This document shows positions 787 to 47,486 of a DNA stretch of 64,000 nt, in pieces (the first letter of the stretch is position 1; the number at the start of each line of letters is the position of its first letter). Position numbers and translations under genes: made by a program. Source of the DNA: Bacillota bacterium (GTDB lineage: Bacteria; Bacillota; Dethiobacteria; DTU022; UBA8154); assembly GCA_012798755.1 (NCBI GenBank), contig JAAZMP010000037.1, forward strand, positions 581 through 64,580. The letters run 5' to 3'. The notes below the pieces were generated by a model that worked only from the letters and a program-made list of their open reading frames with translations, was not told where the DNA came from and ran no database searches.

Positions 787-939
787 AACCTATGCAAAAA
801 AGTATAAATATTTAGGGAAAACAACGCCACAACATATCAACATTCCAACATCCCCATATTGATGTATTGCAATATAGCGCTGATTGTGGTATAGTTATAT
901 TTGCGGGCGTGTTTTAGTTTATAAGAAAGGGGATAAAAA

Positions 940-1218
940 GTGATTATTGAGCTTAGCCCTGAAGCAAAAGAGTATATTTTGAAAAAGAAGGCGGATGCCG
1001 TAACTGTAAGTATGGTCATGAGCGGAGGTTGAGGCGGTTTTACTTTTAAGCCTGCCGTGAATGCAGGCGAACCACGGAATAAGGATGAATATGAAACATC
1101 TTTTTTTGACGATATAAAAATATACATTTCGCGTTCTGTGAACGCTAATCGGGTGTCGATTTTTTATAGGCCAGGATTTTTTGGCATCTTTGGTGACCTT
1201 GGTGTAGCTTTTTCTTAA
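940..1218 (+). CDS. HesB/IscA-like selenoprotein, 92 aa, GTG start, in-frame UGA (Sec) at 1030-1032
   Basis: Manual translation from GTG 940 (RBS AAGGGG 926-931) gives VIIELSPEAKEYILKKKADAVTVSMVMSGG-U-GGFTFKPAVNAGEP...IKIYISRSVNANRVSIFYRPGFFGIFGDLGVAFS*. The U falls exactly where IscA/HesB have the conserved Cys of the GGC(S)G motif. A SECIS-like hairpin follows. The ORF track misses it because of the TGA. Confidence 0.7.
1050..1068 (+). promoter_or_regulatory. Putative bacterial SECIS hairpin (GCCUGC-cgugaau-GCAGGC) starting 18 nt 3' of the UGA
   Basis: A perfect 6-bp stem with a 7-nt loop lies immediately downstream of the in-frame TGA at 1030-1032, inside the coding frame. Confidence 0.5.
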
Positions 1219-1257: not shown

Positions 1258-1293
1258 AGCCAAAGGAATAGTATGTTTCTTTGGCTATTTTAT
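1258..1293 (+). terminator. Intrinsic terminator after the selenoprotein gene
   Basis: AGCCAAAG-13 nt loop-CTTTGGCT followed by ATTTTAT. Confidence 0.5.
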
Positions 1294-1411
1294 ATATAAC
1301 TGTAAACACAAGGTAAATAAAAACAATGCCCTTTAATGCTTAAAATTTAGCCGAAATGAAGGAAAGAGAGGTAATTTGGACTTTGAGCAATTAAACGGGT
1401 AATCTTGGGTG

Positions 1412-3016: not shown

Positions 3017-4768
3017 TCATTTAGTTGCAGAAAGGTCCCTAAGTAGTTCTGATATTGAACTTTTTAAAGCATCCATTTCCTGGATTGCTTTTTCTTTACT
3101 GGTGCTTTTTACACCAAAATAAAATTTTATCTTTGGTTCTGTTCCTGAAGGGCGTATACAAAACCAAGAATCTTCTTCCAATAGATATTTAAGCGAATTG
3201 CTTGTAGGCAGTCCTGTGGCTGTCTTTCTTTTTGCAATGGTGTCAATGCTCTCTCCGGTAAGATAATCTATAATGTGTGTTACGCGTTTGTCGCCGATTT
3301 GATTCAGCGCAGATTTCCGGAAAAATTCAACGGTTTTTTTTGCTTGCCCCGGATCTTGGTTGTCCAAGTCAATGTTGACAAGTTCTTCCATAAAATAGCC
3401 ATATTTTTTGTACAGGTTGTCCAAGGCCTGGATTAAACTTATACCTTTGGATTTATAATAAGCAGCCATTTCTACCGTTAACTGGCTGGCCTGAATGGCA
3501 TCTTTGTCCCTGACAAAATCATCGATCAGAAAGCCGCAGCTTTCTTCATAACCGAAAAGAAAGGTTTTTTGTCCCGAGTCCACAAGTTCTTTAATTTTTT
3601 CCCCGATATATTTAAAACCGGTGAGTGTTTCCAAGGTTGTTATTCCGTATGAAGAGGCAATCGATCTGCCCATTTCCGAGGTTACCACTGTTTTAATAAC
3701 GATGCCGTTTATAGGCAGGCGCTGCTGTTTTTGGCGGCGGGATAATATGTATTCCAGCAATAAACAGCCAAGCTGATTTCCCGTGAGAGGAATAAAACGG
3801 CCGTTTTCATCTTTAATCGCTGCACCTAAACGATCGGCATCAAGATCTGTAGCCAGGATAAGATCGGCGGATTTTTCTACGGCAAGCTTGACAGCAAGTT
3901 CAAAGGTATCCCATTCTTCCGGATTGGGATGTTTTATCGTGCTAAAATTAGGATCAGCTTTGGCCTGTGAGGACACTATAAAAAGGTTTTTTAGTCCTGC
4001 TGCTTGAAGGGCCTGTGGAATAATATTTTTTCCGGTGCCATAAAGAGGTGTGTAGACTACCTTTAGATGTGGGTAATGCTTACCGTGGTTGTTGTCCAGG
4101 CGGATCTTCGAAAGGTGTTCCAGGTATTTTGAAAATATATTTTCTCCGATTGAAACTAACATACCCTGTTGAGTGGCATCTTTTAAACCGGCGGTTTTTA
4201 CGAGCAGTTCATTTTTTACTGTAGCAATTTCTGCCGTAATAGAATTTGCCAGCGCATCCGTTATCTGCCCGCCATCAGACCAGTAAACCTTGTAACCATT
4301 GTCTTGGGCAGGGTTATGGCTGGCAGTGATTACTATTCCGGCGATGGCGTTTAGTTCCCTGACAGCAAAGGAAAGTAGCGGGGTAGCCGCCGGTTCAGAA
4401 AATAGGTATACTTTAATATCCCACCTAAGCAATACAGAGGCAGCCTCCCGTGCAAATCGATCTGAATTTTTTCTTGTATCGTAAGCTATTACTACACGGG
4501 GGGCATCGCTGGACATGTTTTTTGGGGATGTGTATTTTTGGATAAAGCGAGCCAGGCCTTCAGTGACTTTGCGTATTATGTAGATGTTCAGCCTGGACGA
4601 TCCAGCCCCCATTCGCCCCCTGATGCCTCCTGTTCCAAATGTCAATTCCCTGGAGAAACGCGCGGCAATTTCTTTTTTTTGGTCGGATATCTGTAATAAT
4701 TCTTCCCTGATTTCTTTGTCCAGGCCGGGAAATTCCAGCCATTTTTTGTACCTATCCCGGTAGTCCAT
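3017..4768 (-). CDS. pgcA: Alpha-D-phosphohexomutase (phosphoglucomutase/phosphomannomutase, PgcA-type)
   Basis: 583 aa; active-site TASHNP plus GTGGIRG. Confidence 0.85.
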   Translation of the reverse strand: MDYRDRYKKWLEFPGLDKEIREELLQISDQKKEIAARFSRELTFGTGGIRGRMGAGSSRLNIYIIRKVTEGLARFIQKYTSPKNMSSDAPRVVIAYDTRKNSDRFAREAASVLLRWDIKVYLFSEPAATPLLSFAVRELNAIAGIVITASHNPAQDNGYKVYWSDGGQITDALANSITAEIATVKNELLVKTAGLKDATQQGMLVSIGENIFSKYLEHLSKIRLDNNHGKHYPHLKVVYTPLYGTGKNIIPQALQAAGLKNLFIVSSQAKADPNFSTIKHPNPEEWDTFELAVKLAVEKSADLILATDLDADRLGAAIKDENGRFIPLTGNQLGCLLLEYILSRRQKQQRLPINGIVIKTVVTSEMGRSIASSYGITTLETLTGFKYIGEKIKELVDSGQKTFLFGYEESCGFLIDDFVRDKDAIQASQLTVEMAAYYKSKGISLIQALDNLYKKYGYFMEELVNIDLDNQDPGQAKKTVEFFRKSALNQIGDKRVTHIIDYLTGESIDTIAKRKTATGLPTSNSLKYLLEEDSWFCIRPSGTEPKIKFYFGVKSTSKEKAIQEMDALKSSISELLRDLSATK

Positions 4769-4799
4769 TTTTTCCTCCTTAATGGGTTCGGAAATTATT

Positions 4800-5873
4800 T
4801 TATAAGTACTTTTCCATTCCTTCAGCTTTTAATTGGTTGACCAGTTTTTTAATATCCTGTGCCTGATCCATGGAACAAACAAGTACAATGCCGTTGGTTT
4901 GAACAATGGCCAAATTTGACACCCCCACAGTGGCAATTAAAGCCTCTTGCCCATAAACAAGGCAATCTTTGGTGTCTACGCTTAGATGTTTCCCCTTGCT
5001 GACATTGTGGTTTTTGTCCCTGGGGGAATGTTCGGCCAGTGCAGCCCAGCTGCCGAGGTCGTCCCAGCCAAAATCCCCCTGCACGAGGAGGGTTTTGGGT
5101 TCTTTTTCCATAACACCGTAGTCGATAGAGATCTCGGGAACTTTTGGAAACAACTTTGCCAGTGCTTCAGTTTCTTTTTCGGTTCCCAGATATTGATCTA
5201 TCTCTTGTAAATGTTTATAAAGAAGGGGGAGATGTTTTTTGATTTTTTTTAAGATAAAACGCGCTTTCCAAGCAAAAATCCCGCTGTTCCAAAGAAAAAG
5301 GCCGGAGTCCAAGAACTCCCGGGCTTTTTGGTTGTCAGGTTTTTCCACAAAACGTTGCACCCGATAGACCATGGGATCTTTGGCTAAAGCGGGTTCTGCT
5401 TTTTCAATGTAGCCATAGCCTGTTTCCGGGCGTGTAGGGGTAATACCGATGGTTACCAAAACATCTTCATTTGATGCCAGTTCCATGGCTCTGCCAATAC
5501 AGGAAAGAAAAGCTTTTTCGTTTATAACCAAATGATCGGCAGGAAGAACAAGCATAACCGGATCGGGATCTTTTTTTAAGAGATATAACGCTGCCAGCCC
5601 TATGCATGGTGCAGTGTTGCGGCCCAGCGGTTCAACAACAATATTGTTTCGGGGCAATTCAGAAAGGTGCTCTTGTACAAGCGGAAGGAAAGCCTTTCCC
5701 GTAACGACCAGAATCTTTTCCGGGGAAAAAAATCCATTAAGGCGATCAAATGTCTGCTGGATCAACGATCGTTCCCCAATCAGGTTTAGGAATTGTTTGG
5801 GAAAATCATTCCTGCTCCAGGGCCAAAATCGTTCACCTTTGCCGCCAGCCATAATAACAGCATAGTTTCCCAC
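4800..5873 (-). CDS. manC: Mannose-1-phosphate guanylyltransferase (GDP-mannose pyrophosphorylase)
   Basis: The N-terminus AVIMAGGKGERFWP and following sequence match the NTP-transferase family of ManC/CpsB. Confidence 0.85.
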   Translation of the reverse strand: MGNYAVIMAGGKGERFWPWSRNDFPKQFLNLIGERSLIQQTFDRLNGFFSPEKILVVTGKAFLPLVQEHLSELPRNNIVVEPLGRNTAPCIGLAALYLLKKDPDPVMLVLPADHLVINEKAFLSCIGRAMELASNEDVLVTIGITPTRPETGYGYIEKAEPALAKDPMVYRVQRFVEKPDNQKAREFLDSGLFLWNSGIFAWKARFILKKIKKHLPLLYKHLQEIDQYLGTEKETEALAKLFPKVPEISIDYGVMEKEPKTLLVQGDFGWDDLGSWAALAEHSPRDKNHNVSKGKHLSVDTKDCLVYGQEALIATVGVSNLAIVQTNGIVLVCSMDQAQDIKKLVNQLKAEGMEKYL

Positions 5874-5910
5874 AGATTGCCCTCCTTTTCTTTTTGTTTG
5901 TTATCCACTG

Positions 5911-6273
5911 CTACGTTCTCCCGTAGCTGTCTTCCAGGCGTACAATATCATCTTCTTCCAGGTAACTGCCAAATTGAACTTCGATAAAAACGAAGGGATC
6001 CTTTTCCTCATTGGCGGCCCGGTGTGCGGCTTCGATGGGGATATCTACTGCTTTTCCCGGGGTTAAATTGATTTTTTTGCCATCTAAGGTGACAACCCCT
6101 TTCCCTTGCACAGCTATCCAATGTTCAGAACGCCGGAAATGTTTTTGGTAGCTTAGTTTTTGTCCCGGGTGTACAATTATTCTTTTCACTTTATAGCCTT
6201 TCCCTTCCAACAGGACCTCCCAGCGGCCCCAGGGTGTATCAACCTTTTGTAATATTTCAGGCTTTTGTGGCAA
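5911..6273 (-). CDS. Cupin-fold protein resembling the C-terminal mannose-6-phosphate-isomerase domain of bifunctional ManC, encoded separately
   Basis: 120 aa; the cupin HxH...E...H pattern is present (HPGQKLSYQKHFRRSEHWIAVQGKG). It sits immediately downstream of manC in the same operon. Confidence 0.6.
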   Translation of the reverse strand: MPQKPEILQKVDTPWGRWEVLLEGKGYKVKRIIVHPGQKLSYQKHFRRSEHWIAVQGKGVVTLDGKKINLTPGKAVDIPIEAAHRAANEEKDPFVFIEVQFGSYLEEDDIVRLEDSYGRT

Positions 6274-6289
6274 TCCATTTCACGCTCCT

Positions 6290-8578
6290 TTAATCCTGCT
6301 CTGTCTTCAAGGCAAAATTGAAACGATCATGCATTTCCCAACGGTAAAGAGTTAGCAATGCTATAAGAAATGCTATTGTAGATTCCGCTCCTTTATTTTT
6401 GTTGACACCTTGCTTGTCCAGTCCGTCCGCGCAGGCACCCGTATGAGAAGAATAGAGGGCTTCACCAAACCGGTTTCTGCCCAGAAACCATTGAAAAGCA
6501 GCGTAACCCAGATCCAGGTATTTTTCTTTTCCAGAGAGGGTAAATGCCAGGACGTAGCCTTCTACAAGAGAACCGGCATCAATCGGTTGTTGGCTGTAAA
6601 CAGCCTTTTTCTTTCCTTTGTGGAACCAGCCTTCGTTTCCCACCAGATCGAAATAACCGTCCTTAAAAAGCACAGAAGTAAGGAAATCTAGACTTTCTAG
6701 CGCAATTTCCAGATATTCCTTTTTTTTAAAATGACGATAGGCCAGCAAAAGGGCTTGGGGAAGCCGGGCATTATCATAGGTAAGAAACGGTTCAAACCAG
6801 GGCCATTCTGCAGAGGAGTGTCTGCGGAAAAAATCTACCAGTTTTTCTGCAATCAAATTCAAATGTTTTCTTGCTTTTTTATTACCGGGTAGCCGCTGCA
6901 AATAGGCATCAATGCCCAAAACGCTGTAAGCCATGGATCTGCTGTATGTAAGCCTGTCCAAAAAAGGCAAACTCTGATCGAAAATTTCCCGGGCCAGTAA
7001 ATCTTGCCCTTCGCTTTGGTACAATCCTGTTGCTGCACCCAAACCCCAAAGAGAACGGCCAAATGTATCTTCGCTTATTTCTTTGTCTTCAAACTGTAAC
7101 TGGTAGTTCATTATGTTGGCGAACCAACCGTTTTCTTGGCGGGCGTATGCAATAAAAGCGAGGTATTTTTCGATTAATGGCATAACGGAACCGGTACGAA
7201 AAAGATTATGATAGGCACAGCAGGCTGCCAAAGCGCGGGCGGCATCATCAGTGGAATATCCATGCCAACGGGAATGTACACCGTAGCGGGTATGCTGCAT
7301 TATGCCAGTATCATCAGTTAGTGATTCCAGAAATTGCAAATTAGCAATGGGCAAAGTATGTAGGTAACCGCTTTTTTTTAAGGAGTAGCCTTTCGATGAA
7401 ACTTCATCAAGTGTGTTTTCAAAGAGTTCGGTATATTTATCAGCCACTATATTCCAGGACATCTTTTTCCCTAAAGCAAAAGCATGGGAGGCTATAGAAC
7501 GTCTTTTATCTTCATTTTCCAGTAGTTCTAAAAGGGATTTACTTAAACCCAACGAGTCTTTAAAGTTTATCAATTTTCCCCGTCCACCGGAAAGAGCCTC
7601 TTTGGCATGGTGATAGGGGGTGGAAACAATTGCCTTGCCTCTCCCCAAGGCCTGGCTTAGGACACCGCTGGTAATTTGCTCTTCAGAATGGTAAGGGCAG
7701 ACAACGATGTCGGCTGCGCCGAGGTATGTTCCCAGGGTGGGATCATCTACAAATTCATTAACGAAAAGAACATTTTTTTCAAGGTGGAGGTCTTCTACAG
7801 TTTTTGTAAGCATTTCACGATATTTTTCCCCGTGTTGTTTTTTAACTACCGGGTGTGTCATACCCAAAATAATATACAACACATCCGGAAACTTTTTAAC
7901 TACCGGTGGCAAAGCCTCCAGCATTATTTCCAAGCCTTTGTTGGGGCTTACGAAGCCAAAAGTTAAGATGATTTGCCGGTTAATAAGGTTTAGCTTGTGT
8001 TTATAAAAAACGGGATCAATAAAAGGCGTATCCGGTACACCGTGGTAAATAAGGCGCACCTTCTGTTCAGGAATTCTATAAGTGTTTTTGAGTATAGTTA
8101 AAGCCAGTCTGTTCATCACAACCAGGCTCCGGGAAAAAGCGGCAATTTCTACAAAAACTTTATGCTGGCCGGGGGTGGGCTTGGTTAGAACTGTATGTAA
8201 TGTTGTTACTACCGGTTTACGGAGATGCCCCAAAAGTTCCACAATATAACTGCCATCGGGGCCTCCAAACAGCCCAAATTCATGCTGCAGAGAAACCAGA
8301 TCTATATTATGTGAATTGATCAGATCAGCCGCCTTTCGATAATCGATCAATTTTTCCTGCCCGATCTGGAAAAGTACCTCCGGTGGGTAGTTGTATCCTT
8401 CTTCTGTATCATTTAAGGCTATAAAAACTCCGGCGTTTTGTCCCAGCTTAGATTCCAACGCCTCATTTAAATTATTTGTAAAAGTGGCAATTCCGCAACG
8501 GCGGGGTAGGCAGCTACTTATATACGCTACACGTAATCGTTTTTTTACTGACAAAAAGCTATTATTATGGTTAAACAA
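6290..8578 (-). CDS. GT4 glycosyltransferase fused to a C-terminal ~350-aa (alpha/alpha)6-barrel glycoside-hydrolase-like domain
   Basis: 762 aa. Residues ~1-400 show the GT-B/GT4 C-terminal signature (LYIILGMTHP...VCPYHSEEQITSGVLSQALGRGKAIVSTP). Residues ~410-760 are W/Y-rich, with RSLWGLGAATGLY and AARALAACCAYH typical of six-hairpin glycosidases (GH63/GH15-like). The exact family is uncertain. Confidence 0.65.
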   Translation of the reverse strand: MFNHNNSFLSVKKRLRVAYISSCLPRRCGIATFTNNLNEALESKLGQNAGVFIALNDTEEGYNYPPEVLFQIGQEKLIDYRKAADLINSHNIDLVSLQHEFGLFGGPDGSYIVELLGHLRKPVVTTLHTVLTKPTPGQHKVFVEIAAFSRSLVVMNRLALTILKNTYRIPEQKVRLIYHGVPDTPFIDPVFYKHKLNLINRQIILTFGFVSPNKGLEIMLEALPPVVKKFPDVLYIILGMTHPVVKKQHGEKYREMLTKTVEDLHLEKNVLFVNEFVDDPTLGTYLGAADIVVCPYHSEEQITSGVLSQALGRGKAIVSTPYHHAKEALSGGRGKLINFKDSLGLSKSLLELLENEDKRRSIASHAFALGKKMSWNIVADKYTELFENTLDEVSSKGYSLKKSGYLHTLPIANLQFLESLTDDTGIMQHTRYGVHSRWHGYSTDDAARALAACCAYHNLFRTGSVMPLIEKYLAFIAYARQENGWFANIMNYQLQFEDKEISEDTFGRSLWGLGAATGLYQSEGQDLLAREIFDQSLPFLDRLTYSRSMAYSVLGIDAYLQRLPGNKKARKHLNLIAEKLVDFFRRHSSAEWPWFEPFLTYDNARLPQALLLAYRHFKKKEYLEIALESLDFLTSVLFKDGYFDLVGNEGWFHKGKKKAVYSQQPIDAGSLVEGYVLAFTLSGKEKYLDLGYAAFQWFLGRNRFGEALYSSHTGACADGLDKQGVNKNKGAESTIAFLIALLTLYRWEMHDRFNFALKTEQD

Positions 8579-8974
8579 GCTTGTGTTTTCCTCCTTTTTC
8601 CAAAATTTTTGCGGTATTTAAATCATTGTTAAACAGCTATTTTGCTGCAAAGTAGGAAGTTCAAACAAGACAATTTGTGAATTCTCCGGTTTTCCCGGAA
8701 GTATTATGCTCGACGTATATGGCTATTGGTTCCGGAAGGGATAAGGAAATAAAGGGATAGCTGAAGTAGGCGTAAATTTATTGCAGTTAAATTTTGTCTC
8801 CTCTGATTATTATAACACGCTTTCCGTGAAAATCAAAATCTTTATATAATACAGCCTGTAAAATTGATAACGGGGTTTTTTGACTCTTGGGCCAGTTTAT
8901 TGTATATTTAAGCGAAGAAGAATATTTTTGAAAGCAGTAAATAAAATTTTATTATAATTATTTGGAGGTCTACA

Positions 8975-11900
8975 ATGTTTGAATTGGAAAAATCTTATAA
9001 GCAAAATATGGCCCCGGTCTTATCCGATGCCAATATGGTTGGTAAGGCCGATCTGGCCCTGGGTATTCCTTTCTTGTACGATACGGAAAAAAAAGAACAG
9101 ATGCTTAAAGCTGTGCAAACAGGGCTGTCTACATTTTTCCCCAATTTAAAGGCAGTGATCATCTGTTTTACGGCGGATAAAAATTATTATTCCCAAGATA
9201 ATGAAATTGGCAAAAAAAATGTTACGGAATTGCAGGAGAATATTATTAGCTTTACATATACTAATGAAGGGCTGATTAAAAAAGGCTGGGCACTAAGGGG
9301 AATTATGGAACTGGCATCGGCTTTGGATGCCGATCTTGTCGTCTTAGAACCTGCCCTTTTTGCAACCGAAGGAGGTTCTATCGGCCTAACTCCAGACTGG
9401 ATCCGGCTACTTTACCAACCTGTTATGGAAGGGCATGCTGATTTGGTACTGCCCCGTTTCAAGTCTCCGCTTTTAGAAAACAGCATTGCAGACCATTTTG
9501 TTTTCCCCCTTTTGGGGGCGCTTTATAATCTGGAACTGCGGGCCTGTTTGGGAGCCGGCCTTTCTTTTAAACGTAGCCTTTTGCCAAGGTACGTAGACGA
9601 CGCCGGGAAATGGCCCAGGGAAGCATTTGAATTTGGTATAGATGTATGCCTTTTGGTTAATGCTTTAGAACAAGGGGCCGAGGTTGCTGAAGTTTATTTA
9701 GGGCAAAAGCCTGTTACACCTTTACCCGTTGATTTACAGTATATGTTTGTCCAGACCGTCCAAGTTCTTTTCAATGCCATTGGAAAAAAACCGTCCCAGC
9801 AGTCCTGGAGAATAAAGCCGGCGGCACTGCGTTCTTCTTTGATTTTTGGTTCCCGGGAAAGCAATTACCTGTCATCCCCCATGCCAAAATATCAGAGCCT
9901 TATTGTTAACTTCCGGCGGGGACTCGTACGTTTTAACAGGGCAATATGGTCCCGAATATTTCCCGAAGAGATCACGGCCCAGTTCCAGGAGCTGGCCGAT
10001 CTTCCCAGGGAAGAATTTAATTTTCCCTCAATTCTTTGGGCGCAAGTGGTATACGACTCCTTGTTGGCTTACAACTTTATGCCCAATCTTAGTAAAGAAG
10101 ACATTGCTGCTGGTTTATGGCCCCTTTTTGAAGGCCGGCTGGCGGGATTCTTAAACGAAATTTCCATTGAAGATGCTTACGGTTTGCCGGATCCTACCCC
10201 TCAAGAAAATTTATGGTCTGCAATTGCCCGAGAGCAGGTTGATGACCAAATGGACACATTTATAGCCAGAAAACGCTACTTTATGGAAAGATGGTTTCAC
10301 CGTCGGGAGGCACTCCAGCCTTTTCTGCCGGAGATTGCTTACTGGGAATATATCCCAGGCATTCCCATTATTTTACCATTGAACATAGAAACTCCCGAAG
10401 GAAAAACTGAACATGTGTCTGCTATCTATGAGCGGCTTCTCATGGAATATAAGGAGCAATTTGAACGGTTTATTTTTGATAATCTTGGTCTTACTGCTAA
10501 AGACGGTTCTTTTAAAATTGCCTATGCCCTGCGTGAACTTTTGCAGCGGCTTGAAGAAAACCTGGACAAATTGCTTTTGCCGGGCGATATCCATACTCCT
10601 GATGGAATGCAAGCTTTCGTAGAGCAACTTACCAAACTTTTGCCTTCGGTACAAAGTTTTTCGTTGAAAAGTGAAGTGGCGGAGGTCTTATTAAGGGAGT
10701 ACCCGCCACGCAACCTTATTACAATCCGTGGTTGCCAGGATATAGATGAGCTCTTCCAAAAACATGATCCGCTTGAAGCGCTGGCCCTGGCAAATTGGTC
10801 GGAGGAAACCAGATATATCACCCTTATCAATGAAACGCTCAGGAAGACTTTACAACCGCATCATTTTGAAGTTTCCTCCATTAAACCCGTTATTGTGGAC
10901 TACAGAGATTTCCCTGCTCTGGCCAATATCAAGGAAGCCCCGGTACTCAACCACTTATCCAGTCGGATAGTGATCGGCAACCTCCGACGGGGCAGCGGTG
11001 GCGAATTTCCCAAAATCAGACTCTTTACCACCGTTCTTAAAAGTGTTATTGATGCTAAGCAATTTGGCTTGATCTGGGAATCTTTTGCCCGTAATCGCAA
11101 AGAATTTGCAGCCATGGTTATGAATTCTATTGAACATCACTGGGGTGAGGCTGCTTTTTCGGCTCACAGCATTTTTGAAAACAGGCAGCACCGGCTTCTC
11201 AGGGATACACTTAAAAAGATTGCTTTGCGCTGCAAAAGCTCTGAAAAAAAAGATATAGCCGACGCTGGAGAACTTTTAGAAACGATTTTGGAAGGTTACC
11301 ACTTAGGTTTAACTTTGCCTGACGGACATTTCATAACGGCTTCCCCTTGGACCTGGGCCAGTTACAGTTTCAAAGGAGGAAAAGATTTTCCTACGCCTCT
11401 TTCCGCGATGATTGAGCGACGTTGGTTTGACAGTGAGCTTTTTTATCGTTGTTGTGAAAAAATAGCAGTAACCCGTGAGGATATTTTTCTTAAAATCACA
11501 GAACTTATGGGCCAAGGGCGTGAGATTGATGATCTAGCCGTATTATATCTTGGTGCCCCTAAACGTGCTAAAGAAATAATTTTGGAACAAAAAATTGATA
11601 AAGATCCGCTGCCTGCAGGGGAGCTTAAAAGATCCGCTTTTAACCCCTTGCTTGTTCCCATTGAAAAGCATGACTGGGAATCAAAGTATGTTCTTAACTG
11701 CGGAACTATCAGGGTAAACGGCCTGGTGTACATTTTTTATCGGGCAGTAGGTGAAGATGGTATCTCACGGCTGGGGCTTGCTACCAGCAGGGATGGTTTG
11801 CATGTGGATGAACGGCTTCCCGAACCTGCCTTTAGCCCCGGGCCTGAAAGCGAAAAAATGGGTTGTGAAGATCCCCGTTTGATCATGATCGAAGGCAGGA

Positions 11901-12574
11901 TCTATATGCTGTATACGGCCTTCGACGGCACTACCCCCCAGATTGCTTTAGCTTCCATCACACCGGATGATCTGGTTAACTATCGTTGGCAGCATTGGCA
12001 CCGGCATGGCCTCGTTTTTCCCAACTTCCCAAATAAGGATGCCATCTTCTTTCCGGAGCGTTTTAACGGCAAATTAGTTATGTATCACCGCATTAATCCA
12101 AACATTTGGTTGGCATCTGCAGATAGTTTTGACACACCCTGGCCCAGAGAAAATCACCACATCGTTATGGGCATTCGTTCCGGTATGATGTGGGATGCCG
12201 TCAAAATCGGAGCCGGCGCGCAACCTTTAAAAACAAAATATGGCTGGCTGCTTATCTATCATGGTGTGGATTACTGTCTTACTTACCGGCTTGGCATTTT
12301 TTTAACCTCATTAGACGATCCGGCAGAGATTTTGTACCGCTCGCCCAATTCTATTTTGGAACCGGAAACGTCCTACGAAATAGGAGTTTTTGGCCAATGC
12401 TGGGTTCCCAACGTTGTCTTCACCTGTGGTGCATTGCCTGCTGTTGAAAAGGAGATACTGGATGATGACGATGAGATCCTTGTTTATTATGGGGGAGCAG
12501 ATACCGTCATCGGTGTAGCAAGTGCAACCTTGGGCGAATTGATCCCTGCCAAGGTCCGTCAAAAGCTGAAATAA
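8975..12574 (+). CDS. 1199-aa multidomain protein: N-terminal GpgS-like GT-A glycosyltransferase (GT81-like), a central ~500-aa helical region, and a C-terminal GH130 mannoside-phosphorylase domain
   Basis: N-terminus: ALDADLVVLEP...WIRLLYQPVM...LVLPRFKSP...FPLLGALYNLELRACLGAGLSFKRSLLPRY...FEFGIDVCLL parallels glucosyl-3-phosphoglycerate synthase (DSDLINP..WLVGPLL..LVKSFYRRP..RPLLAALRPEL..QPLSGEYAASRELL..YGVEIGLL). C-terminus: NCGTIRVNGLVYIFYRAVGEDGISRLGLATSRDG..., MGCEDPRLIMIEGRIYMLYTAFDG..IALASI, FPERFNGKLVMYHR, WDAVKIGAGAQPLKTKYGWLLIYHGVD and ILVYYGGADTVIGVA are classic GH130 blocks. Confidence 0.7.
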   Translation: MFELEKSYKQNMAPVLSDANMVGKADLALGIPFLYDTEKKEQMLKAVQTGLSTFFPNLKAVIICFTADKNYYSQDNEIGKKNVTELQENIISFTYTNEGLIKKGWALRGIMELASALDADLVVLEPALFATEGGSIGLTPDWIRLLYQPVMEGHADLVLPRFKSPLLENSIADHFVFPLLGALYNLELRACLGAGLSFKRSLLPRYVDDAGKWPREAFEFGIDVCLLVNALEQGAEVAEVYLGQKPVTPLPVDLQYMFVQTVQVLFNAIGKKPSQQSWRIKPAALRSSLIFGSRESNYLSSPMPKYQSLIVNFRRGLVRFNRAIWSRIFPEEITAQFQELADLPREEFNFPSILWAQVVYDSLLAYNFMPNLSKEDIAAGLWPLFEGRLAGFLNEISIEDAYGLPDPTPQENLWSAIAREQVDDQMDTFIARKRYFMERWFHRREALQPFLPEIAYWEYIPGIPIILPLNIETPEGKTEHVSAIYERLLMEYKEQFERFIFDNLGLTAKDGSFKIAYALRELLQRLEENLDKLLLPGDIHTPDGMQAFVEQLTKLLPSVQSFSLKSEVAEVLLREYPPRNLITIRGCQDIDELFQKHDPLEALALANWSEETRYITLINETLRKTLQPHHFEVSSIKPVIVDYRDFPALANIKEAPVLNHLSSRIVIGNLRRGSGGEFPKIRLFTTVLKSVIDAKQFGLIWESFARNRKEFAAMVMNSIEHHWGEAAFSAHSIFENRQHRLLRDTLKKIALRCKSSEKKDIADAGELLETILEGYHLGLTLPDGHFITASPWTWASYSFKGGKDFPTPLSAMIERRWFDSELFYRCCEKIAVTREDIFLKITELMGQGREIDDLAVLYLGAPKRAKEIILEQKIDKDPLPAGELKRSAFNPLLVPIEKHDWESKYVLNCGTIRVNGLVYIFYRAVGEDGISRLGLATSRDGLHVDERLPEPAFSPGPESEKMGCEDPRLIMIEGRIYMLYTAFDGTTPQIALASITPDDLVNYRWQHWHRHGLVFPNFPNKDAIFFPERFNGKLVMYHRINPNIWLASADSFDTPWPRENHHIVMGIRSGMMWDAVKIGAGAQPLKTKYGWLLIYHGVDYCLTYRLGIFLTSLDDPAEILYRSPNSILEPETSYEIGVFGQCWVPNVVFTCGALPAVEKEILDDDDEILVYYGGADTVIGVASATLGELIPAKVRQKLK

Positions 12575-24228: not shown

Positions 24229-25113
24229 TTGTTATCTAAAATTGTTATACGGAGGGGATGGCAGGGAATTATCATTATCATATTTTTTCTGATTGTAGCC
24301 TTTGGAGCGGAATACCTTGCACCCTATGGAAGGTATGAACAGGTTGGCCCTTCTTTTCAACCGCCTTCACCATCAAACATTTTCGGTATTGATGACTGCG
24401 GATATGATATTTTAAGTCAAGTGATCTGGGCAAGCCGTAATAGTTTGATGGTAGGTATAGTAACAGGTGTGCTGGCCGTGTCGGGGGGCCTTATTTGGGG
24501 GGTAACTGCCGGTTATCATGGTGGTTTTATCGATCTTTTGTTGATGCGCCTTTGTGATATCATGCTTGGTTTGCCCCAGATGCCGTTTATGATTTTAATA
24601 GCAGTATACATCGGTGCGAGCCTAGGAAACATCATCATAATGCTTGCTGTATTCATGATGCCCCGCCTTGCCAGGGTGATCAGAGGCCAGGTTATCAGCT
24701 TGAAGGAAAATGCTTACATCAAGGCATCCCAAATGTTCGGTGCAAAAACAAAATATTTGATTCGGAGACACTATATCCCCGAACTTTTCCCGCTTATTTG
24801 CTCAGGGATAATTAACTTGGTAGGCAGGGCCATTTTAGCAGAATCAGGACTGGCTTTTCTTGGATTGGGGGATCCAACGGCAAAGAGTTGGGGTATGATC
24901 ATTCATTATGCTTTAAAATATCCCAAGACTTACCTTACAGCTGCTTGGACTTGGTGGGTTTTACCGCCCGTTATCTGTATTGTCTTGCTCAATTTGGCTT
25001 TTGTGATGCTTGGATATGGTTTGGAGGAATCTTTTGATCCACGTCTCCGTGGGAAAAACGGTGTAAAAAAGGATCCACAAAACAAAAAAACAAGGAGGAA
25101 AAGAAAAACAATC
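24229..25113 (+). CDS. ABC transporter permease (OppC/DppC/NikC-like). Its frame has no stop and runs directly into the downstream binding-protein gene
   Basis: The BPD-transporter core and C-terminal ...EESFDPRLRGK are typical of OppC. The frame stays open through an A-rich 22-codon spacer into ATG 25114. Confidence 0.7.
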
Positions 25114-26754
25114 ATGAAAGAGTTAAAAAAGATTATAATAGCATTTCTTTTATTGGCAGTCATTTTTAGCCTGGCAGCATGTGATGCAGAAAAAGTTGTA
25201 GAAGAAACAGCAGCTGAAGAAACAACAATTGATGAAACATTGGATGATGAAAAAGAAATAATCATTCGTTTGCCCGGAGGTGATTGGGGATTTCCTGATC
25301 CGTTTGTCCACCAACCCAGGGACTGGGGAGGAGTTTATACAAATTTCATATTTGATAGCCTTGTTGAAGATGATGAAACGGGAACAATTCCCTGGTTGGC
25401 TACGCGATGGGACATTCTTGACGATGGCAAAAAATATGTTTTTGAACTCAGACCAAATGTTACATGGCATGACGGGGCCGAATTTACAGCCGATGATGTT
25501 GTCTTCACCTTCAATTACTACCGGGAAAAAGAAAATTTTATTTACGATCTGTCAGATGTTGAAAGGGTAATAAAAACTGGCGATTACAGTGTGGAATTCG
25601 AAATAAAAGAGCCTTCTGTTGTCATCATGGATAAAGTGTTTAAAAGAACGCCTATAATTCCAGAGCACATCTGGAAAAATGTTGATGATCCTAAAAAATT
25701 ACATACCGACAGCCCTGATGAGGCGGTAATTGGAACCGGTCCTTACACCCTTGCGGATTATCAAAAGGAACATGGTACCTATCATTTTAAGGCATATGAT
25801 GATTTCTGGGGTGGAGTTCCACGGGTTAGTGAGATAATGACTATTCCTACACAGGAAAGCGTCTTGTCCTTGCTTAATGGGGAGGTTGCCATCACGATGG
25901 TATCGCCCCAGGAGATCGACATGTTTAAGGATAAGCCGGAGTTCGTAATTGAAGAGGTTAAACCGTATCATCATAAATGGCTTTGCTTTAACCTGAATGA
26001 TCCTATACTTGCGGACATCAAATTCAGACAAGCTATGGCCCATGCCATTGACCGGCAGGAACTGCTTGATCGTATGTTTTCGGGAGTAGGAAATATAGAA
26101 GGACAGGGAGGAATTCCCAAGGTTCATCCTTTATACAATCCCGGGATTAAAAACTATGATTACAGCCCGGAGAAATCAAATCAAATATTAGATGAGCTGG
26201 GGTATAAAGATGTTGATAACGATGGCATAAGGGAAGATAAAAATGGCAATCCCTTGAAATTTACCATTTTAGTGATGGAAGCTAATGCACGGGGTGCTGA
26301 ACTTGTTAAAGTGCAGTTACAAAAGGTGGGCATCGATGTCGAAATTAAAACCAATGACAGAAATACAATAGATGACATGACCAGGGCAGGTAAATTTCAA
26401 ATTGTCTATCAGATGGGAGGGTATGGCGGACTTTCCGGGGATCCTGATTTTTTAGCGCGGAATTTTACGCCGGGGGCCAGCGGTTTTAGTTTTTTCAGTG
26501 CTTATGGATATGACAACCCCCGGATAAATGAACTTGCCGCCAAGCAAAGAACAGAGTTTGACCCTAAGGCGCGGGAAAAAATGATTTTTGAAATACAGGA
26601 AATTGTTTCTGAAGAGATTCCATTGTATTATCTCTATGCCCAGGGCGGTTACTATGTTTATAATAAAGAAATTTATGACGGATGGTTTTACACTCTTGGT
26701 GGTACGCACCTTGATCGTTCCAAGCTGGAATACTGCCGTGGCGGGCTAAAATGA
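25114..26754 (+). CDS. ABC transporter substrate-binding lipoprotein, SBP family 5 (peptide/nickel/opine type)
   Basis: Own RBS CAAGGAGGA; lipoprotein signal LLLAVIFSLAACD; family-5 blocks (WHDGAEFTADDVVFTF...). Confidence 0.8.
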   Translation: MKELKKIIIAFLLLAVIFSLAACDAEKVVEETAAEETTIDETLDDEKEIIIRLPGGDWGFPDPFVHQPRDWGGVYTNFIFDSLVEDDETGTIPWLATRWDILDDGKKYVFELRPNVTWHDGAEFTADDVVFTFNYYREKENFIYDLSDVERVIKTGDYSVEFEIKEPSVVIMDKVFKRTPIIPEHIWKNVDDPKKLHTDSPDEAVIGTGPYTLADYQKEHGTYHFKAYDDFWGGVPRVSEIMTIPTQESVLSLLNGEVAITMVSPQEIDMFKDKPEFVIEEVKPYHHKWLCFNLNDPILADIKFRQAMAHAIDRQELLDRMFSGVGNIEGQGGIPKVHPLYNPGIKNYDYSPEKSNQILDELGYKDVDNDGIREDKNGNPLKFTILVMEANARGAELVKVQLQKVGIDVEIKTNDRNTIDDMTRAGKFQIVYQMGGYGGLSGDPDFLARNFTPGASGFSFFSAYGYDNPRINELAAKQRTEFDPKAREKMIFEIQEIVSEEIPLYYLYAQGGYYVYNKEIYDGWFYTLGGTHLDRSKLEYCRGGLK

Positions 26755-31278: not shown

Positions 31279-32106
31279 ATGAGTAGTATTGTAATTGCAG
31301 GTATTTCTCCCCATCCGCCCTTGATCATTCCCGGAGTTGGTGGTAGGGAAATAAACGAGGTTCGCCGGACGGTTGATGCTTTAACGGAACTTTCTGCAGA
31401 AGTTGCCGCTGCCCATCCTCAAACCGTGATATTTATAACCCCACATGGCCCTATGCATAGGGAAGCCATCGCCGTTTTGGCAGATGAGGATCTCAAAGGT
31501 GATTTTGGCAACTTTCGTGCTCCCGAGGTCAGGCTTTCGGCCAAAAATGATTTGAAGCTCTTACAGGCCTTAATGGAGGAAAGTAACAAAGAAAGGTTCA
31601 AGCTGTCTCTGCAAAAAAGGAAAAAACCTTCGCTGTTTCGTGACGAAATGCAGCTGGATCATGGTACGACCGTTCCCCTTTACTACTTGCAGAAGGCCGG
31701 TACTGCTGAAAAGATTATGGTGCTAACTTTTGCCATGCTGTCTTACAATGATCTTTTTAGATTTGGGCAGGTGTTGCAAAAAGCTATCGAAACCACTGGC
31801 CGCAGGGTTGCTCTCATAGCGAGCGCGGACCTATCACACCGCCTCAAACCAGGGGCACCTGCAGGTTACGACCCTCGGGGGGAAGAATTTGATCAAAAAC
31901 TGGTTCAACATTTGCATGATTATGATGTAGAAAAAATATTATCCATGGACAGGAAACTTATTGCCGCTGCGGGAGAATGTGGCTTGCGCTCCATTGTCAT
32001 TCTTTTGGGCGGTCTTTCCGGTCTAAACGTGGCACCGGAGGTTTTATCCTACGAGGGACCCTTTGGTGTTGGCTATCTTGTGGCTACAGTCAAAATATTC
32101 GAATGA
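31279..32106 (+). CDS. AmmeMemoRadiSam system protein B (Memo/LigB-like)
   Basis: 275 aa with LigB/Memo-like PHGPMH and SADLSHR motifs. First gene of a B-A-radical-SAM triad. Confidence 0.65.
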   Translation: MSSIVIAGISPHPPLIIPGVGGREINEVRRTVDALTELSAEVAAAHPQTVIFITPHGPMHREAIAVLADEDLKGDFGNFRAPEVRLSAKNDLKLLQALMEESNKERFKLSLQKRKKPSLFRDEMQLDHGTTVPLYYLQKAGTAEKIMVLTFAMLSYNDLFRFGQVLQKAIETTGRRVALIASADLSHRLKPGAPAGYDPRGEEFDQKLVQHLHDYDVEKILSMDRKLIAAAGECGLRSIVILLGGLSGLNVAPEVLSYEGPFGVGYLVATVKIFE

Positions 32107-32639
32107 TATGGAGGAAGAATTATTTGGTTAAAACAGGAAGTATTTTTACAGAGATCGCCCGTCAATCCCTGGAAAACCATCTTCGGGGGAAACCGAAGCT
32201 TTTTTCCCGGAGCCTTCCCGCCAAACTCAAGCAGCCGGGAGCAGCTTTTGTTACCCTAAAAAAACAAGGCGATCTAAGAGGCTGTATCGGCACGATTTTT
32301 CCTACTAAAAAGACTTTGGCGGAAGAAATTGCCGCCAATGCTATCAGCGCCGGGTTGCACGATTCCCGTTTCCCTCCGGTTTCCAAAAACGAACTGGGGG
32401 ATTTGACTTACAGCGTTGATATCCTGACCAAACCGGAAAAAACAGAAGATTTATCTCAGTTGGATCCCCGGCGCTATGGAGTGATCGTCCGGCACGGCAG
32501 CAAAAGCGGTTTGCTGCTGCCGGATTTGGAAGGAATTGATACAGTGGAAGAACAATTGGAAATAGCTAAGCAAAAAGCAGGGATACGGCACGATGAAGAC
32601 GTGGAAATCTACCGTTTTAAGGTGGAACGTTATTATTAA
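32103..32639 (+). CDS. AmmeMemoRadiSam system protein A (AMMECR1 domain)
   Basis: AMMECR1 hallmarks (GAAFVTLKK.GDLRGCIGT, RYGVIV..G..SGLLLP). ATG 32103 overlaps the upstream stop (ATGA). Confidence 0.75.
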   Translation: MIWRKNYLVKTGSIFTEIARQSLENHLRGKPKLFSRSLPAKLKQPGAAFVTLKKQGDLRGCIGTIFPTKKTLAEEIAANAISAGLHDSRFPPVSKNELGDLTYSVDILTKPEKTEDLSQLDPRRYGVIVRHGSKSGLLLPDLEGIDTVEEQLEIAKQKAGIRHDEDVEIYRFKVERYY

Positions 32640-32656
32640 AACTGACGTGGGGGAAT

Positions 32657-33682
32657 ATGGAAAATATGAAAGAGGCACGCTACTATACCCGAAATAATTC
32701 CAAAATATCCTGTGAGCTTTGTCCCCAGGGATGTCTGCTTTCAGAGGGCCAAACGGGTATTTGTGGTGTCCGCAAGGTTGAAAAAGGGAAGCTTGTAACT
32801 TTAAATTATGCTTTGTGTGCTGCCATGAATATAGATCCCATCGAAAAAAAACCTCTTTACCATTTTTACCCCGGCTGGGAAATTCTTTCCGTTGGAACGA
32901 TTGGGTGCAACCTGCATTGTTCTTTTTGCCAGAACTGGTCCTTGGCCCGAGGCGATCGTTCCCCAACGATAGAAAAAACTACCCCGGGGGAGTTTTTGGA
33001 TATTCTCCAAGAGCGCCCCTTACGGCAACAATTGGGTATCGCCTATACCTATAATGAACCTACGATTTGGTACGAATTTGTCCTGGAAACCGCGCAGCTT
33101 ATGGCTGAAAATGGTTATAAAAACGTTCTTGTATCTAATGGGCTTATCAACAAACAACCCTTGCAGGAACTTTTGCCCTATATCCAGGCCATGAATATCG
33201 ATGTCAAGTCCTTTAGCGAAGAATTTTACCGGCAACATTGCAAGGGGCGGGGTCTTAAAGAGGTTAAACGTACCGTAGAGCAGGCACATTCGCGCTGCCA
33301 TGTGGAGCTTACCTATCTTATCGTTACTACATTAAACGACAGCCGTGAAGAAATAGAGGATTTTGTCAATTGGGTAGCCTCCGTGGATAAAGAGATCCCC
33401 GTCCATTTTAGTCGCTATTTTCCCAGCTATCGCCTGAAGATACCCCCTACACCGCCGGAAACGATACGGCAAGCCTGGGAAACCGCTAAAGAAAAGCTTT
33501 CTTATGTTTATGTCGGTAATGTCATGGATCCCAAAAGGAGTGCCACGTACTGCCCCTTTTGCAACCGGCTTTTGATCGATCGTAGTGGATATCGCGTTAA
33601 AAACGAGGGGTTAAAGGGTAAAAAATGCAAAACATGCGGTAATACTATAAGGTTGACGGGGCATATTTATGGAGAAGGATGA
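32657..33682 (+). CDS. AmmeMemoRadiSam system radical SAM enzyme
   Basis: CNLHCSFC (CxxxCxxC) radical-SAM cluster motif; extra N-terminal and C-terminal Cys pairs; third gene of the triad. Confidence 0.8.
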   Translation: MENMKEARYYTRNNSKISCELCPQGCLLSEGQTGICGVRKVEKGKLVTLNYALCAAMNIDPIEKKPLYHFYPGWEILSVGTIGCNLHCSFCQNWSLARGDRSPTIEKTTPGEFLDILQERPLRQQLGIAYTYNEPTIWYEFVLETAQLMAENGYKNVLVSNGLINKQPLQELLPYIQAMNIDVKSFSEEFYRQHCKGRGLKEVKRTVEQAHSRCHVELTYLIVTTLNDSREEIEDFVNWVASVDKEIPVHFSRYFPSYRLKIPPTPPETIRQAWETAKEKLSYVYVGNVMDPKRSATYCPFCNRLLIDRSGYRVKNEGLKGKKCKTCGNTIRLTGHIYGEG

Positions 33683-41456: not shown

Positions 41457-42248
41457 ATGGCAGATTTAGAAAAAGATTTAAAAAAAATAAGTAAGTCCTC
41501 TGTTATCCCCGTTTATTATCAACTGGCCAGGATTTTAGAAAAAAGAATTCGTTTAGGTAAACTAAAACCCGGCGAATCTTTACCATCGGAAAATAAAATT
41601 GCATCGATTTGCGGTATCAGCAGAATGACCGTCAGAAGGGCTATTGCGGAGCTGGTTGATTTAAGGCTGCTTTCTCCGCAAAAAGGAAAGGGTACTTTTG
41701 TTACTGAGCATGAATTTGCTCATACAGTATTTGAATTCTACGATTTTTTTAAAGAGATGCGCAGAAAAGGAAAAGAACCCAGCTCCAAACTGGTTAATGT
41801 TAGAATAATTAAAGCTGATAAGACGATAGCAAAAAAACTTGATATCCCTATTGATACAAAAACATTATCTATTAAATTAATTCTTGCTGCAGATGGCTAC
41901 CCCATGGTTTATGAAGAAAAATACATCGTTTACACCAAACAAAATCCCATAATTGAATCTGAATTAAGGGATCCCTCCCTACCCAGTCTTGTTTCTTCAC
42001 ATTTACATAAGTTGCCGGTAACCAGTCGCAGAATTCTACAGGTTACCATCATCAATGAAGAAGAAGCTATTTTATTGAACACTAAACCTCATTCACCTGC
42101 ATTTCTGGTGGAGCAAATTTTATATGACAAGGATAACACACCAATTGGCTGGGGCAAATCAATTTATCGCGGGGATAGTTATAAACTTGTAAGCTATGAC
42201 GGACTAAATCCCGGCCGGGAAAAAGGGGGCATTATAGATTATGAGTGA
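41457..42248 (+). CDS. GntR/HutC-family transcriptional regulator (wHTH + UTRA)
   Basis: SENKIASICGISRMTVRRAIAELV is the GntR HTH; the C-terminal UTRA-like domain follows. Confidence 0.85.
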   Translation: MADLEKDLKKISKSSVIPVYYQLARILEKRIRLGKLKPGESLPSENKIASICGISRMTVRRAIAELVDLRLLSPQKGKGTFVTEHEFAHTVFEFYDFFKEMRRKGKEPSSKLVNVRIIKADKTIAKKLDIPIDTKTLSIKLILAADGYPMVYEEKYIVYTKQNPIIESELRDPSLPSLVSSHLHKLPVTSRRILQVTIINEEEAILLNTKPHSPAFLVEQILYDKDNTPIGWGKSIYRGDSYKLVSYDGLNPGREKGGIIDYE

Positions 42249-42864
42249 TTTGATCGAAATGATTGTCAACCTTGATGAACAAAAAACAATCAATTGTATA
42301 AAAAAAAGATTAAATAACGGCGAAAGCGCCATGCAAATTTTTGAGGAATGTATGAAAGGTATTGAAAAGGTTGGCCAAAAATATAGTGAGGGATTCTATT
42401 TTTTATCCGATCTGATCATGGCCGGGGAAATTTTTAGGGCCATAACGGAGATACTGGAACCGCTTTTACCGGAGGGTGACAATGCTGTCAGCAATGATCT
42501 TAAGGTAGTGATCGGTACGGTAAAAGGGGATATCCATGATCTTGGCAAAAATCTGATTGCCTATTACTTAAAATCCAAGGGATTTAAAGTATATGACCTG
42601 GGAGTGGATGTCCCTCCGGAAAAGTTTATAAATACTCTTAAGGAGACAGGCGCCTCTATTTTAGGGATATGCACTTTGCTGACCAGTTGTTTTAACAATA
42701 TAAAAAAAATTGTAGGGCTTTTAGACGAAGCGGGATTGAGAAATGATATTACCGTGATAATCGGAGGTTACCCGGTGGATGAAACAGTCAAAAATTATGT
42801 TGGTGCAGATTATTTCAGCAATAATGCAAGGAGCGCTTTTGATTTGTTTAAACATTTAAGCTAA
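42241..42864 (+). CDS. Corrinoid (B12-binding) protein of a methyltransferase system
   Basis: N-terminal cap domain plus DxHxxG (GDIHDLGKN) and Rossmann B12-binding domain. Confidence 0.85.
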   Translation: MSDLIEMIVNLDEQKTINCIKKRLNNGESAMQIFEECMKGIEKVGQKYSEGFYFLSDLIMAGEIFRAITEILEPLLPEGDNAVSNDLKVVIGTVKGDIHDLGKNLIAYYLKSKGFKVYDLGVDVPPEKFINTLKETGASILGICTLLTSCFNNIKKIVGLLDEAGLRNDITVIIGGYPVDETVKNYVGADYFSNNARSAFDLFKHLS

Positions 42865-42925
42865 CCGGTTATTTTTTTTAAAACAACATGTCTATACATC
42901 TGCACCTATAAACAGGAGGTGATCT

Positions 42926-43006
42926 ATGGAAAGTAAAAAATTTGATTTAAGCTGCTTTACTAATCAATTATCAATCAGAAAGGATGAAAAGCATGTACGG
43001 TTTTGA
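42926..43006 (+). CDS. Candidate 26-aa upstream ORF (MESKKFDLSCFTNQLSIRKDEKHVRF) overlapping the transporter start
   Basis: Perfect SD (AGGAGGTGATC) 5 nt before its ATG. Its stop overlaps the first codons of the BenE-like gene. Confidence 0.25.
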   Translation: MESKKFDLSCFTNQLSIRKDEKHVRF

Positions 43007-44213: not shown

Positions 44214-44283
44214 AAGCAAAGGATGGATATTGCCGGGTATTTTTTAGAGCATACTGTTATTTCAATACTTGAAAGGAGCATGC

Positions 44284-45666: not shown

Positions 45667-45703
45667 AAGATCTAACAGTATTTAAGAAGGGAGAAAATTA
45701 ACT

Positions 45704-46345
45704 ATGGGCAAATTATCTGAACTGGCGCAAGCTCTTATGGAACTAAATGAATTTAAGTTTTTAGAACTGGTGGATGAGAAGTTAAAGAAAAAAGAAGATC
45801 CTTTAGAAATAATCAAAGAGTGCAATGCCGGAATGGTTGAAGTAGGCAATCTTTTTTCGGAAAACAAGTATTTTATCAGTGAACTAATGTTTTCAGCAGA
45901 GCTGTTCAAAGAAGCGATGAAAAAGTTGGAGCCGTTTCTTGGTAACAGCAAAACAAAGGAGCAATCCGGTGAAATTGTGATCATAGGAACGGTAGAAGGG
46001 GACATCCATGATATTGGTAAAAACATTGCTGCTAACCTCATAGAAGGCAGCGGTTATAGGGTTATCGATTTGGGTGTTGATGTACCTGCAGAAAAGTTTG
46101 TGGAGGAATTGAAGAAAACCGGTGCAAAGGTTTTAGGCTTGAGTGCCATGTTAAACTTTGTATTTCCGGAAATGAAAAATGTCGTAGATTCGATCGCTGA
46201 AGCAGGCTTGAGGGAACAGGTAAAAATTATCATTGGTGGAGCACCGTGTAACGAGCAGGTCAGAAAATTTTGTGGAGCGGACTATTATGCAAAAGATGCT
46301 TCCGCCGGTGTTACAATTTGTCAGGAAATATACAGCAGTGAATAA
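45704..46345 (+). CDS. Corrinoid (B12-binding) protein, second copy
   Basis: GDIHDIGKN DxHxxG motif; paralogous to 42241-42864. Confidence 0.85.
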   Translation: MGKLSELAQALMELNEFKFLELVDEKLKKKEDPLEIIKECNAGMVEVGNLFSENKYFISELMFSAELFKEAMKKLEPFLGNSKTKEQSGEIVIIGTVEGDIHDIGKNIAANLIEGSGYRVIDLGVDVPAEKFVEELKKTGAKVLGLSAMLNFVFPEMKNVVDSIAEAGLREQVKIIIGGAPCNEQVRKFCGADYYAKDASAGVTICQEIYSSE

Positions 46346-46457
46346 GGACTGGTCTAGCGAATAGTGAAGTCGTGGAATGCTTTATATTATTAACTAAAAG
46401 CCAATCATTGTTAACGTGATTGGCTCCTTTCTTACCATAAAACCGGGGGTATGAACT

Positions 46458-47336: not shown

Positions 47337-47486
47337 ATGGTGTTTTTTTGCAGGCGCTTTCGGAATATGTTGAATCGGGCAGCCTAACCGGATTTCAAGA
47401 TCGCTTTTCCCGCACTTGTTTTTTTAAATTTGTATACACATTATTTCAATCTCATAAATATAATACCCTAAAAGGGGGTTGTAAAA

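Follow-up and report, generated by a model that had tools for sequence, protein, structure and literature searches.

A CC/Se motif family selenoprotein gene with a predicted IscA/SufA-like fold in a Bacillota bacterium from biogas reactors

Introduction

Recoding of UGA by SelB and a SECIS element is the standard mode of selenocysteine (Sec) decoding in bacteria. Two described groups of small selenoproteins are relevant to the gene reported here. The CC/Se motif family has been tabulated as a predicted selenoprotein family (PMC13188914, Table 1; PMC9312934), and CxxU is given as its motif (PMC13188914, Table 1). A search of the literature for PF28096 and for the family name found the family in these review tables only (PMC13188914, PMC9312934), and no link between the family and the IscA/HesB fold was found in the literature searched. 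The HesB-like selenoproteins (TIGR01911/NF038090), for which UxGP is the motif given (PMC13188914, Table 1), are also small, have a HesB/IscA-type fold and carry Sec at around residue 30, within the hairpin that holds the first Cys of IscA. Two further groups are related by fold, namely IscA, SufA and ErpA (PDB 1r94, 1x0g, 2d2a) and DsrR (PDB 2k4z), which resembles IscA and belongs to the Dsr system of sulfur oxidation. DsrR is Sec-free, is encoded in a dsr operon and demonstrates that the fold occurs without cluster ligands.

Here we analyzed a gene at positions 940-1218 of a 64,000-nucleotide stretch of DNA (referred to as the window; positions 581 to 64,580 of contig JAAZMP010000037.1) from a Bacillota bacterium that has been recovered repeatedly from biogas and fermenter metagenomes. 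It is very probably a monocistronic gene for a CC/Se-family selenoprotein, with a UGA codon for Sec, a covarying stem-loop and a product of predicted IscA/SufA-like fold. Like other members of the CC/Se family, the predicted protein is about 90 amino acids long, passes the cutoff of the family HMM, carries Sec at the conserved Sec/Cys column around 30 residues from the N-terminus and contains the P-x-V-x-x-G-x-P segment after Sec. It differs from the motif quoted for the family, CxxU, in that the corresponding residues are SGGU and the protein is free of Cys. The Sec hairpin is placed as in the HesB-like selenoproteins, but the product scores below the cutoffs of their models, is devoid of UxGP and belongs to a separate sequence family. 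Identity to IscA, SufA and ErpA is 11-13%, and the product is approximately 15 residues shorter than these proteins and lacks their C-terminal Cys-Gly-Cys. Unlike dsrR, the gene stands alone.

A first-pass annotation, made from the sequence letters, had interpreted the region as a HesB/IscA-like selenoprotein gene encoding an A-type Fe-S carrier. The selenoprotein gene, the UGA codon for Sec, the SECIS element and the Cys-equivalent position of Sec were all borne out by the present analysis, whereas the label given to family and function was not.

Results

The gene and its signals

Translation of the region yielded a single 92-codon frame on the plus strand, extending from GTG 940 to TAA 1216-1218. 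As the first-pass annotation had described, its sole interruption is an in-frame TGA at 1030-1032 (codon 31). The features of the region are as follows.

867..895, plus strand: promoter-like site, TTGCAA-17 nt-TATAGT with TG upstream, approximately 45 nt 5' of the start codon (consensus scan)
925..933, plus strand: ribosome-binding site GAAAGGGGA, 7 nt upstream of GTG 940 (direct sequence reading)
940..1218, plus strand: predicted coding sequence of a CC/Se motif family selenoprotein, 92 residues, approximately 10.2 kDa, Sec at codon 31 (translation)
1030..1032, plus strand: in-frame TGA for selenocysteine (U31); 13 homologous loci have TGA at the aligned position and three have a Cys codon
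1034..1075, plus strand: predicted bacterial SECIS of two helices (minimum-free-energy folds, covariation, RNAalifold, covariance model)
1258..1296, plus strand: AGCCAAAGGAA...TTTCTTTGGCT, a terminator-like hairpin with a T-rich run on its 3' side, 40 nt past the stop codon (consensus scan)
837..1127, minus strand: overlapping open reading frame of 96 amino acids, judged not to be a gene

Homologues start with Met at the residue aligned to GTG 940. The promoter-like and terminator-like sites suggest, at the level of consensus matches, that the gene forms a monocistronic unit; promoter-like matches in the region are not above the shuffle count and hence are weak evidence for the site at 867-895. 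The product contains no Cys at all, and the residues around Sec read SGGU and then UGGF.

Mechanical listing of open reading frames cuts the gene in two, at 940-1032 (30 amino acids) and 1057-1218 (53 amino acids). The reading frame on the opposite strand (837-1127) was rejected as a gene: it has no match in Pfam, and homology and the conserved frame lie entirely on the plus strand, where homologues follow both halves of the gene. The first-pass annotation had likewise noted the split and regarded the minus-strand frame as an artefact. It had also described the gene as of a class that automated pipelines often overlook, and indeed the 700-nt interval that contains it was left blank in all four assemblies of the organism. 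The gene sequence is base-for-base identical across these four independent assemblies, which derive from different samples; the TGA is therefore not a sequencing error. The present analysis thus adds a selenoprotein gene that is uncalled in the four assemblies examined of this biogas-reactor organism, and the gene implies Sec decoding there.

A frame with one internal TGA is not in itself distinctive, as seven such frames of similar size are found in the 64-kb window. Neither the interrupted frame alone nor the hairpin alone is better than chance, so the case rests on relatives of the gene. A scan of the window for other genes split by TGA revealed only short upstream-extension artefacts and no second credible selenoprotein gene. 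An NCBIfam scan of every long open reading frame detected no selA, selB or selD in the window, nor did the window contain selC: ARAGORN found no tRNA and Rfam no RNA family. That the organism decodes Sec is assumed from the gene at 940-1218 itself.

Conservation of the UGA codon among relatives

An exhaustive HMMER search retrieved 21 relatives, and 23 full-length members were aligned. At the column of the TGA, 19 members show W derived from TGA, three show Cys and one (P0013, seen in the protein alignment only) shows Tyr. The W residues arose because TGA was translated with a Trp-reading code. The TGA was verified in the DNA at 13 loci, two of them near-identical to the window (L001 and L022, approximately 98% identity) and about ten divergent (27-50% identity). 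The divergent loci comprise a closer group with 42-50% identity (L012, L013, L014, L019, L020) and a more distant group with 27-39% identity (L021, L023, L002, L006, L009, L017). The first-pass annotation had taken the UGA for a Sec codon at a position held by Cys in homologues. In agreement with this, the codon recurs at the aligned position, and the Cys codons of three homologues fall on the UGA codon itself (TGC in L015, TGC in L024 and TGT in L025).

The Sec members of the family appear in public protein collections in two incorrect forms, either with W at the Sec site or as fragments of about 30 and about 53 amino acids deposited as separate entries (P0001, P0002-P0006, P0014-P0027; P0007, P0008, P0012, P0028-P0034). 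The family thus illustrates how selenoproteins are held in databases, split or with Trp in place of Sec. With Sec members stored in this way, a first word-indexed protein search returned one near-identical match only. A genome scan with the single protein as query found no relative, indicating that the genome collection lacks the species or has it masked; with a narrower alignment as query, three genome loci and two metagenome loci were recovered.

A covarying SECIS element follows the UGA codon

The predicted SECIS element consists of a lower helix (1034-1040 paired with 1069-1075; alignment columns 5-11 with 40-46) and an upper helix, in which GCCUGC (1050-1055) pairs with GCAGGC (1063-1068; columns 21-26 with 34-39). 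The internal loop has 9 nt on its 5' side (1041-1049), and the apical loop is CGUGAAU (1056-1062). The GCCUGC/GCAGGC hairpin, which the first-pass annotation had already put forward as a SECIS-like element, is contained in the minimum-free-energy fold. Its energy alone is unremarkable (z = -0.76; 45 of 200 shuffled sequences fold as well). Published criteria for bacterial SECIS elements are an apical loop of 3-9 nt, an upper stem of 4-16 bp, a G in loop position 1-2, a distance of 16-37 nt from UGA to loop and a minimum free energy of -7.5 kcal/mol or lower (PMC13188914). The hairpin has a loop of 7 nt, a stem of 6 bp, G at position 2, a spacing of 23 nt and an energy of -13.5 kcal/mol, and so lies within all of these limits. 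Together with the covariation described below, this places the element where the first-pass annotation had expected it.

Comparative analysis was carried out on a gap-free alignment of 12 distinct sequences, each covering 60 nt from the TGA. Across the alignment the apical loop reads CGUGNNU and closes the upper helix. Pairing was possible in 82% of cells, compared with 31-42% when the 3' partners were slid by 1-3 columns, and eight of the 13 pairs change on both sides among the 12 sequences. None of 500 column shuffles matched the observed pairing or covariation score. RNAalifold, unaided, returned the identical two helices. The upper stem of L014 is a clear example of compensation, as three double substitutions, from CCUGCC/GCAGG to CCCAUA/AUGGG, leave it intact. 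When a covariance model was built without the window sequence, positions 1030-1089 were the only strong site in the 64 kb, with a score of 60.6 bits that partly reflects coding homology; the runner-up in the window reached 14.9 bits.

Genes of the Cys form served as controls, three genes only. These retain only 6-9 pairs out of 13, as against 10-13 in the main Sec group, and form no such hairpin when folded. In the distant Sec members L006, L009 and L017 the register of the stem is shifted by one base and the loop is of 4 nt, starting with GU. Conservation of the helices is partly forced by the conserved residues Pro38, Gly43 and Pro45, and the GU of the loop is encoded by the codon of the invariant Val40. 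From the sequences compared, the SECIS at 1034-1075 is well supported, and the protein sequence of the family is shaped by the RNA structure at the upper stem. Residues 39 and 42 covary across the family (Ala/Ala, Ile/Met, Ser/Val, Phe/Met), matching the needs of the upper stem; this was read at window positions 1045-1068 (codons 36-43) and at the same codons in L014, L006 and L017.

Decoding would proceed as follows. The UGA at 1030-1032 stands at the conserved Sec/Cys position of the family and is followed by the stem-loop at 1034-1075, whose apical loop CGUGAAU starts 23 nt past the UGA. When the ribosome meets the UGA, a complex of SelB, GTP and Sec-tRNA(Sec) would bind the apical hairpin, and Sec would be inserted in place of termination.

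Assignment to the CC/Se motif family

For profile searches in NCBIfam, U31 of the product was replaced by Cys. The product matched NF041239, "CC/Se motif family (seleno)protein", with 64.7 bits (cutoff 40, E 6e-18), residues 1-74 aligning to model positions 1-75 of 91. Both halves matched this model separately and in collinear order, the N-terminal half with 23.9 bits (positions 1-29) and the C-terminal half with 28.5 bits (positions 32-75). The corresponding Pfam family, PF28096 (CC_Se_fam), is present in the precomputed annotation of relatives, including P0001, which is 96% identical to the product. Our own Pfam scan of the product gave no family; the Pfam release searched predates PF28096.

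Membership in the HesB-like selenoprotein or IscA families, as proposed by the first-pass annotation, was not upheld. TIGR01911 (HesB-like selenoprotein) gave no match in NCBIfam at E <= 10. Matches to NF038090 (IscA_HesB_Se; 15.3 bits, cutoff 85, E 0.018) and to TIGR00049 (12.5 bits, cutoff 58.8, E 0.13) were weak and collinear. A sequence-profile search of the PDB at E <= 10 returned no IscA or SufA chain and only chance matches to malate dehydrogenase. Judged by its sequence, the gene at 940-1218 thus encodes a member of the known, functionally uncharacterised CC/Se family and not of the HesB-like selenoprotein family.

The CxxU motif is absent from the product, where the residues are S-G-G-U. 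Of the 23 aligned members, only 11 have a Cys at position -3 relative to the Sec/Cys column; all three Cys forms lack it, and seven of the 19 aligned Sec forms are, like the product, devoid of any Cys. In the family as sampled, CxxU is not universal and appears dispensable; Sec/Cys itself is the only reactive residue conserved throughout the aligned members.

The predicted fold resembles IscA and SufA

The structure of the product was predicted with AlphaFold2 from the 23-sequence alignment (mean pLDDT 92.5, pTM 0.79). The predicted topology is β1-α1-β2-β3 followed by four further strands, with residue 31 in the Gly-rich turn that joins β2 (20-30) and β3 (33-42). The best 11 Foldseek matches were mostly of one kind, IscA/SufA-like, with TM scores of up to 0.68. 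We are confident that the protein, as modeled, has the IscA/SufA (HesB) fold. The first-pass annotation had placed Sec where HesB/IscA proteins keep their conserved cluster-ligating Cys. This placement agrees with the strong fold match and with a collinear hhalign alignment to IscA, SufA and ErpA in which U31 falls on Cys35, the first cluster-ligand Cys of IscA, at a probability of only 5.8% and with IscA, SufA and ErpA sequences that were entered by hand. From the model, HesB/IscA and the CC/Se family are probably distantly related, the latter carrying its reactive residue at the equivalent place.

Canonical A-type carriers use three Cys ligands, one in the β2-β3 turn and two in a C-terminal Cys-Gly-Cys. 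In the product only the first of these positions is filled, by Sec31. Since the C-terminal Cys-Gly-Cys is missing, canonical three-Cys ligation of a cluster is impossible. With neither the C-terminal Cys-x-Cys pair nor any other Cys, the product is taken, at low confidence, not to be a canonical A-type Fe-S carrier, and this label of the first-pass annotation, being unjustified, was dropped. The predicted fold and the defined reactive position are a gain for an uncharacterised selenoprotein family, as they narrow the experiments that are worthwhile. Beyond what is known of the family, the assignment of an IscA-like fold and the missing Cys of CxxU are modest extras, and a selenoprotein specialist would find nothing here surprising.

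Possible function and alternative readings

The lone exposed selenol of the product may act intermolecularly, either in selenenylsulfide or diselenide exchange or in binding a metal or chalcogen ligand, be it between the subunits of a dimer or together with a partner protein. We hold with low confidence, from the model, that such chemistry at the exposed hairpin takes place rather than canonical Fe-S carriage. It is conceivable, if rather doubtful, that the CC/Se family as a whole arose from the A-type Fe-S-carrier fold as a Sec-dependent branch in which the C-terminal ligands were lost. In members such as the present one, which contain no resolving Cys and no Cys elsewhere, the lone selenol at the hairpin equivalent to IscA Cys35 might then work between molecules. 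Two subunits could be bridged by Sec into a dimer that holds a metal or chalcogen, or selenium or sulfur could be relayed to a partner, by a mechanism that is undescribed for this fold. A true A-type Fe-S carrier of the HesB/IscA type, with Sec replacing the first cluster-ligating Cys, is improbable. Such a protein would be expected to have the IscA/SufA-like fold, and would fit the (weak) alignment of U31 to IscA Cys35, the weak collinear matches to NF038090 and TIGR00049 and the hypF-hypC-hypD-hypE metallocentre maturation genes that adjoin the Cys-form gene L024 (3001-6309). However, the scores of 15.3 and 12.5 bits remain far below the respective cutoffs of 85 and 58.8, TIGR01911 and Pfam yielded nothing and the PDB no IscA chain at E <= 10, the C-terminal Cys-Gly-Cys pair is missing from a protein without Cys, and UGGF stands in place of UxGP. 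In addition, the fold does not imply cluster binding, as DsrR possesses it without the ligands.

Two readings do away with Sec altogether. The TGA could be a nonsense mutation that has inactivated a member of the family, or it could separate two unrelated small reading frames. A pseudogene would be at home among the decayed neighbors of the gene (an IS21 fragment and a BrxL fragment), and it would also account for the gene being uncalled in every assembly and for the window containing no detected Sec machinery. Against this, the same TGA codon is found in about ten divergent loci (27-50% identity) with both halves conserved as protein, a covarying RNA structure lies 3' of the TGA, the ribosome-binding site and start codon are intact, and four assemblies are identical. 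A pseudogene is strongly disfavored and very improbable. Reading of UGA as Trp or Gly under an alternative genetic code is scarcely credible. The W at the Sec position of database entries such as P0001 could be taken in its favor, but TGA is an ordinary stop codon in the window, where it terminates eight of the 47 long open reading frames, and GlmS, LysS and PcrA are of full length under the standard code. Reassignment of TGA throughout the genome is therefore excluded. Moreover, each gene of the family contains one TGA, always at the column that holds Cys in other members.

Genomic neighborhood

No conserved partner gene was found near the homologues; their neighborhoods are unrelated, and each neighbor occurs in one or two lineages. 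In L002-L005 (8118-10159), a gene for a Pyr_redox_2-rhodanese protein resembling CoA-disulfide reductase is located 105 nt upstream on the same strand. A xanthine/uracil permease is encoded nearby in L006 and L017, which belong to divergent lineages. L019 and L020 each contain a convergent DUF1847 gene. These two loci, assigned to an uncultured Desulfovibrionaceae MAG (L019) and a Syntrophomonadaceae MAG (L020), have the order CC/Se gene, DUF1847, DctM and DctQ in common, which may reflect mis-binning or transfer.

Upstream of the gene in the window, an IS21 transposase fragment (42-422) overlaps a C-terminal fragment of BrxL (385-786). Related contigs (L026, 1-3758) contain fragments of BrxA and BrxC farther upstream, and the contigs of the four assemblies stop at, or at most 3 kb upstream of, the window start. 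The region at 42-786 has the appearance of a degraded BREX defence locus situated where the assembly breaks. Downstream, a gene of the PcrB/GGGP-synthase family is located at 1486-2220. Its product passes the equivalog cutoff of TIGR01769, 'phosphoglycerol geranylgeranyltransferase' (172.8 against 161.55). In Bacillota, a heptaprenylglyceryl phosphate synthase is expected for a PcrB-family gene.

Several other loci of the window were recorded in passing. A mannose-related cluster (3017-12574) comprises a phosphomannomutase-like gene, ManC, a GT4 glycosyltransferase of 762 amino acids and a protein of 1199 amino acids whose C-terminus resembles GH130 β-1,2-mannobiose phosphorylase. At 24229-26754, a reading frame of 841 amino acids unites two components in one polypeptide, an Opp/Nik-type ABC permease (residues 13-272) and a substrate-binding protein (371-816), which is an unusual arrangement. 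AmmeMemoRadiSam protein A and a radical SAM enzyme are encoded at 31279-33682, where the preceding reading frame probably specifies a Memo-like protein B. A corrinoid methyltransferase cluster at 41457-49268 contains several large reading frames without a strong family match, together with two MtbC/MtgC-like corrinoid proteins and a methyl-THF:corrinoid methyltransferase.
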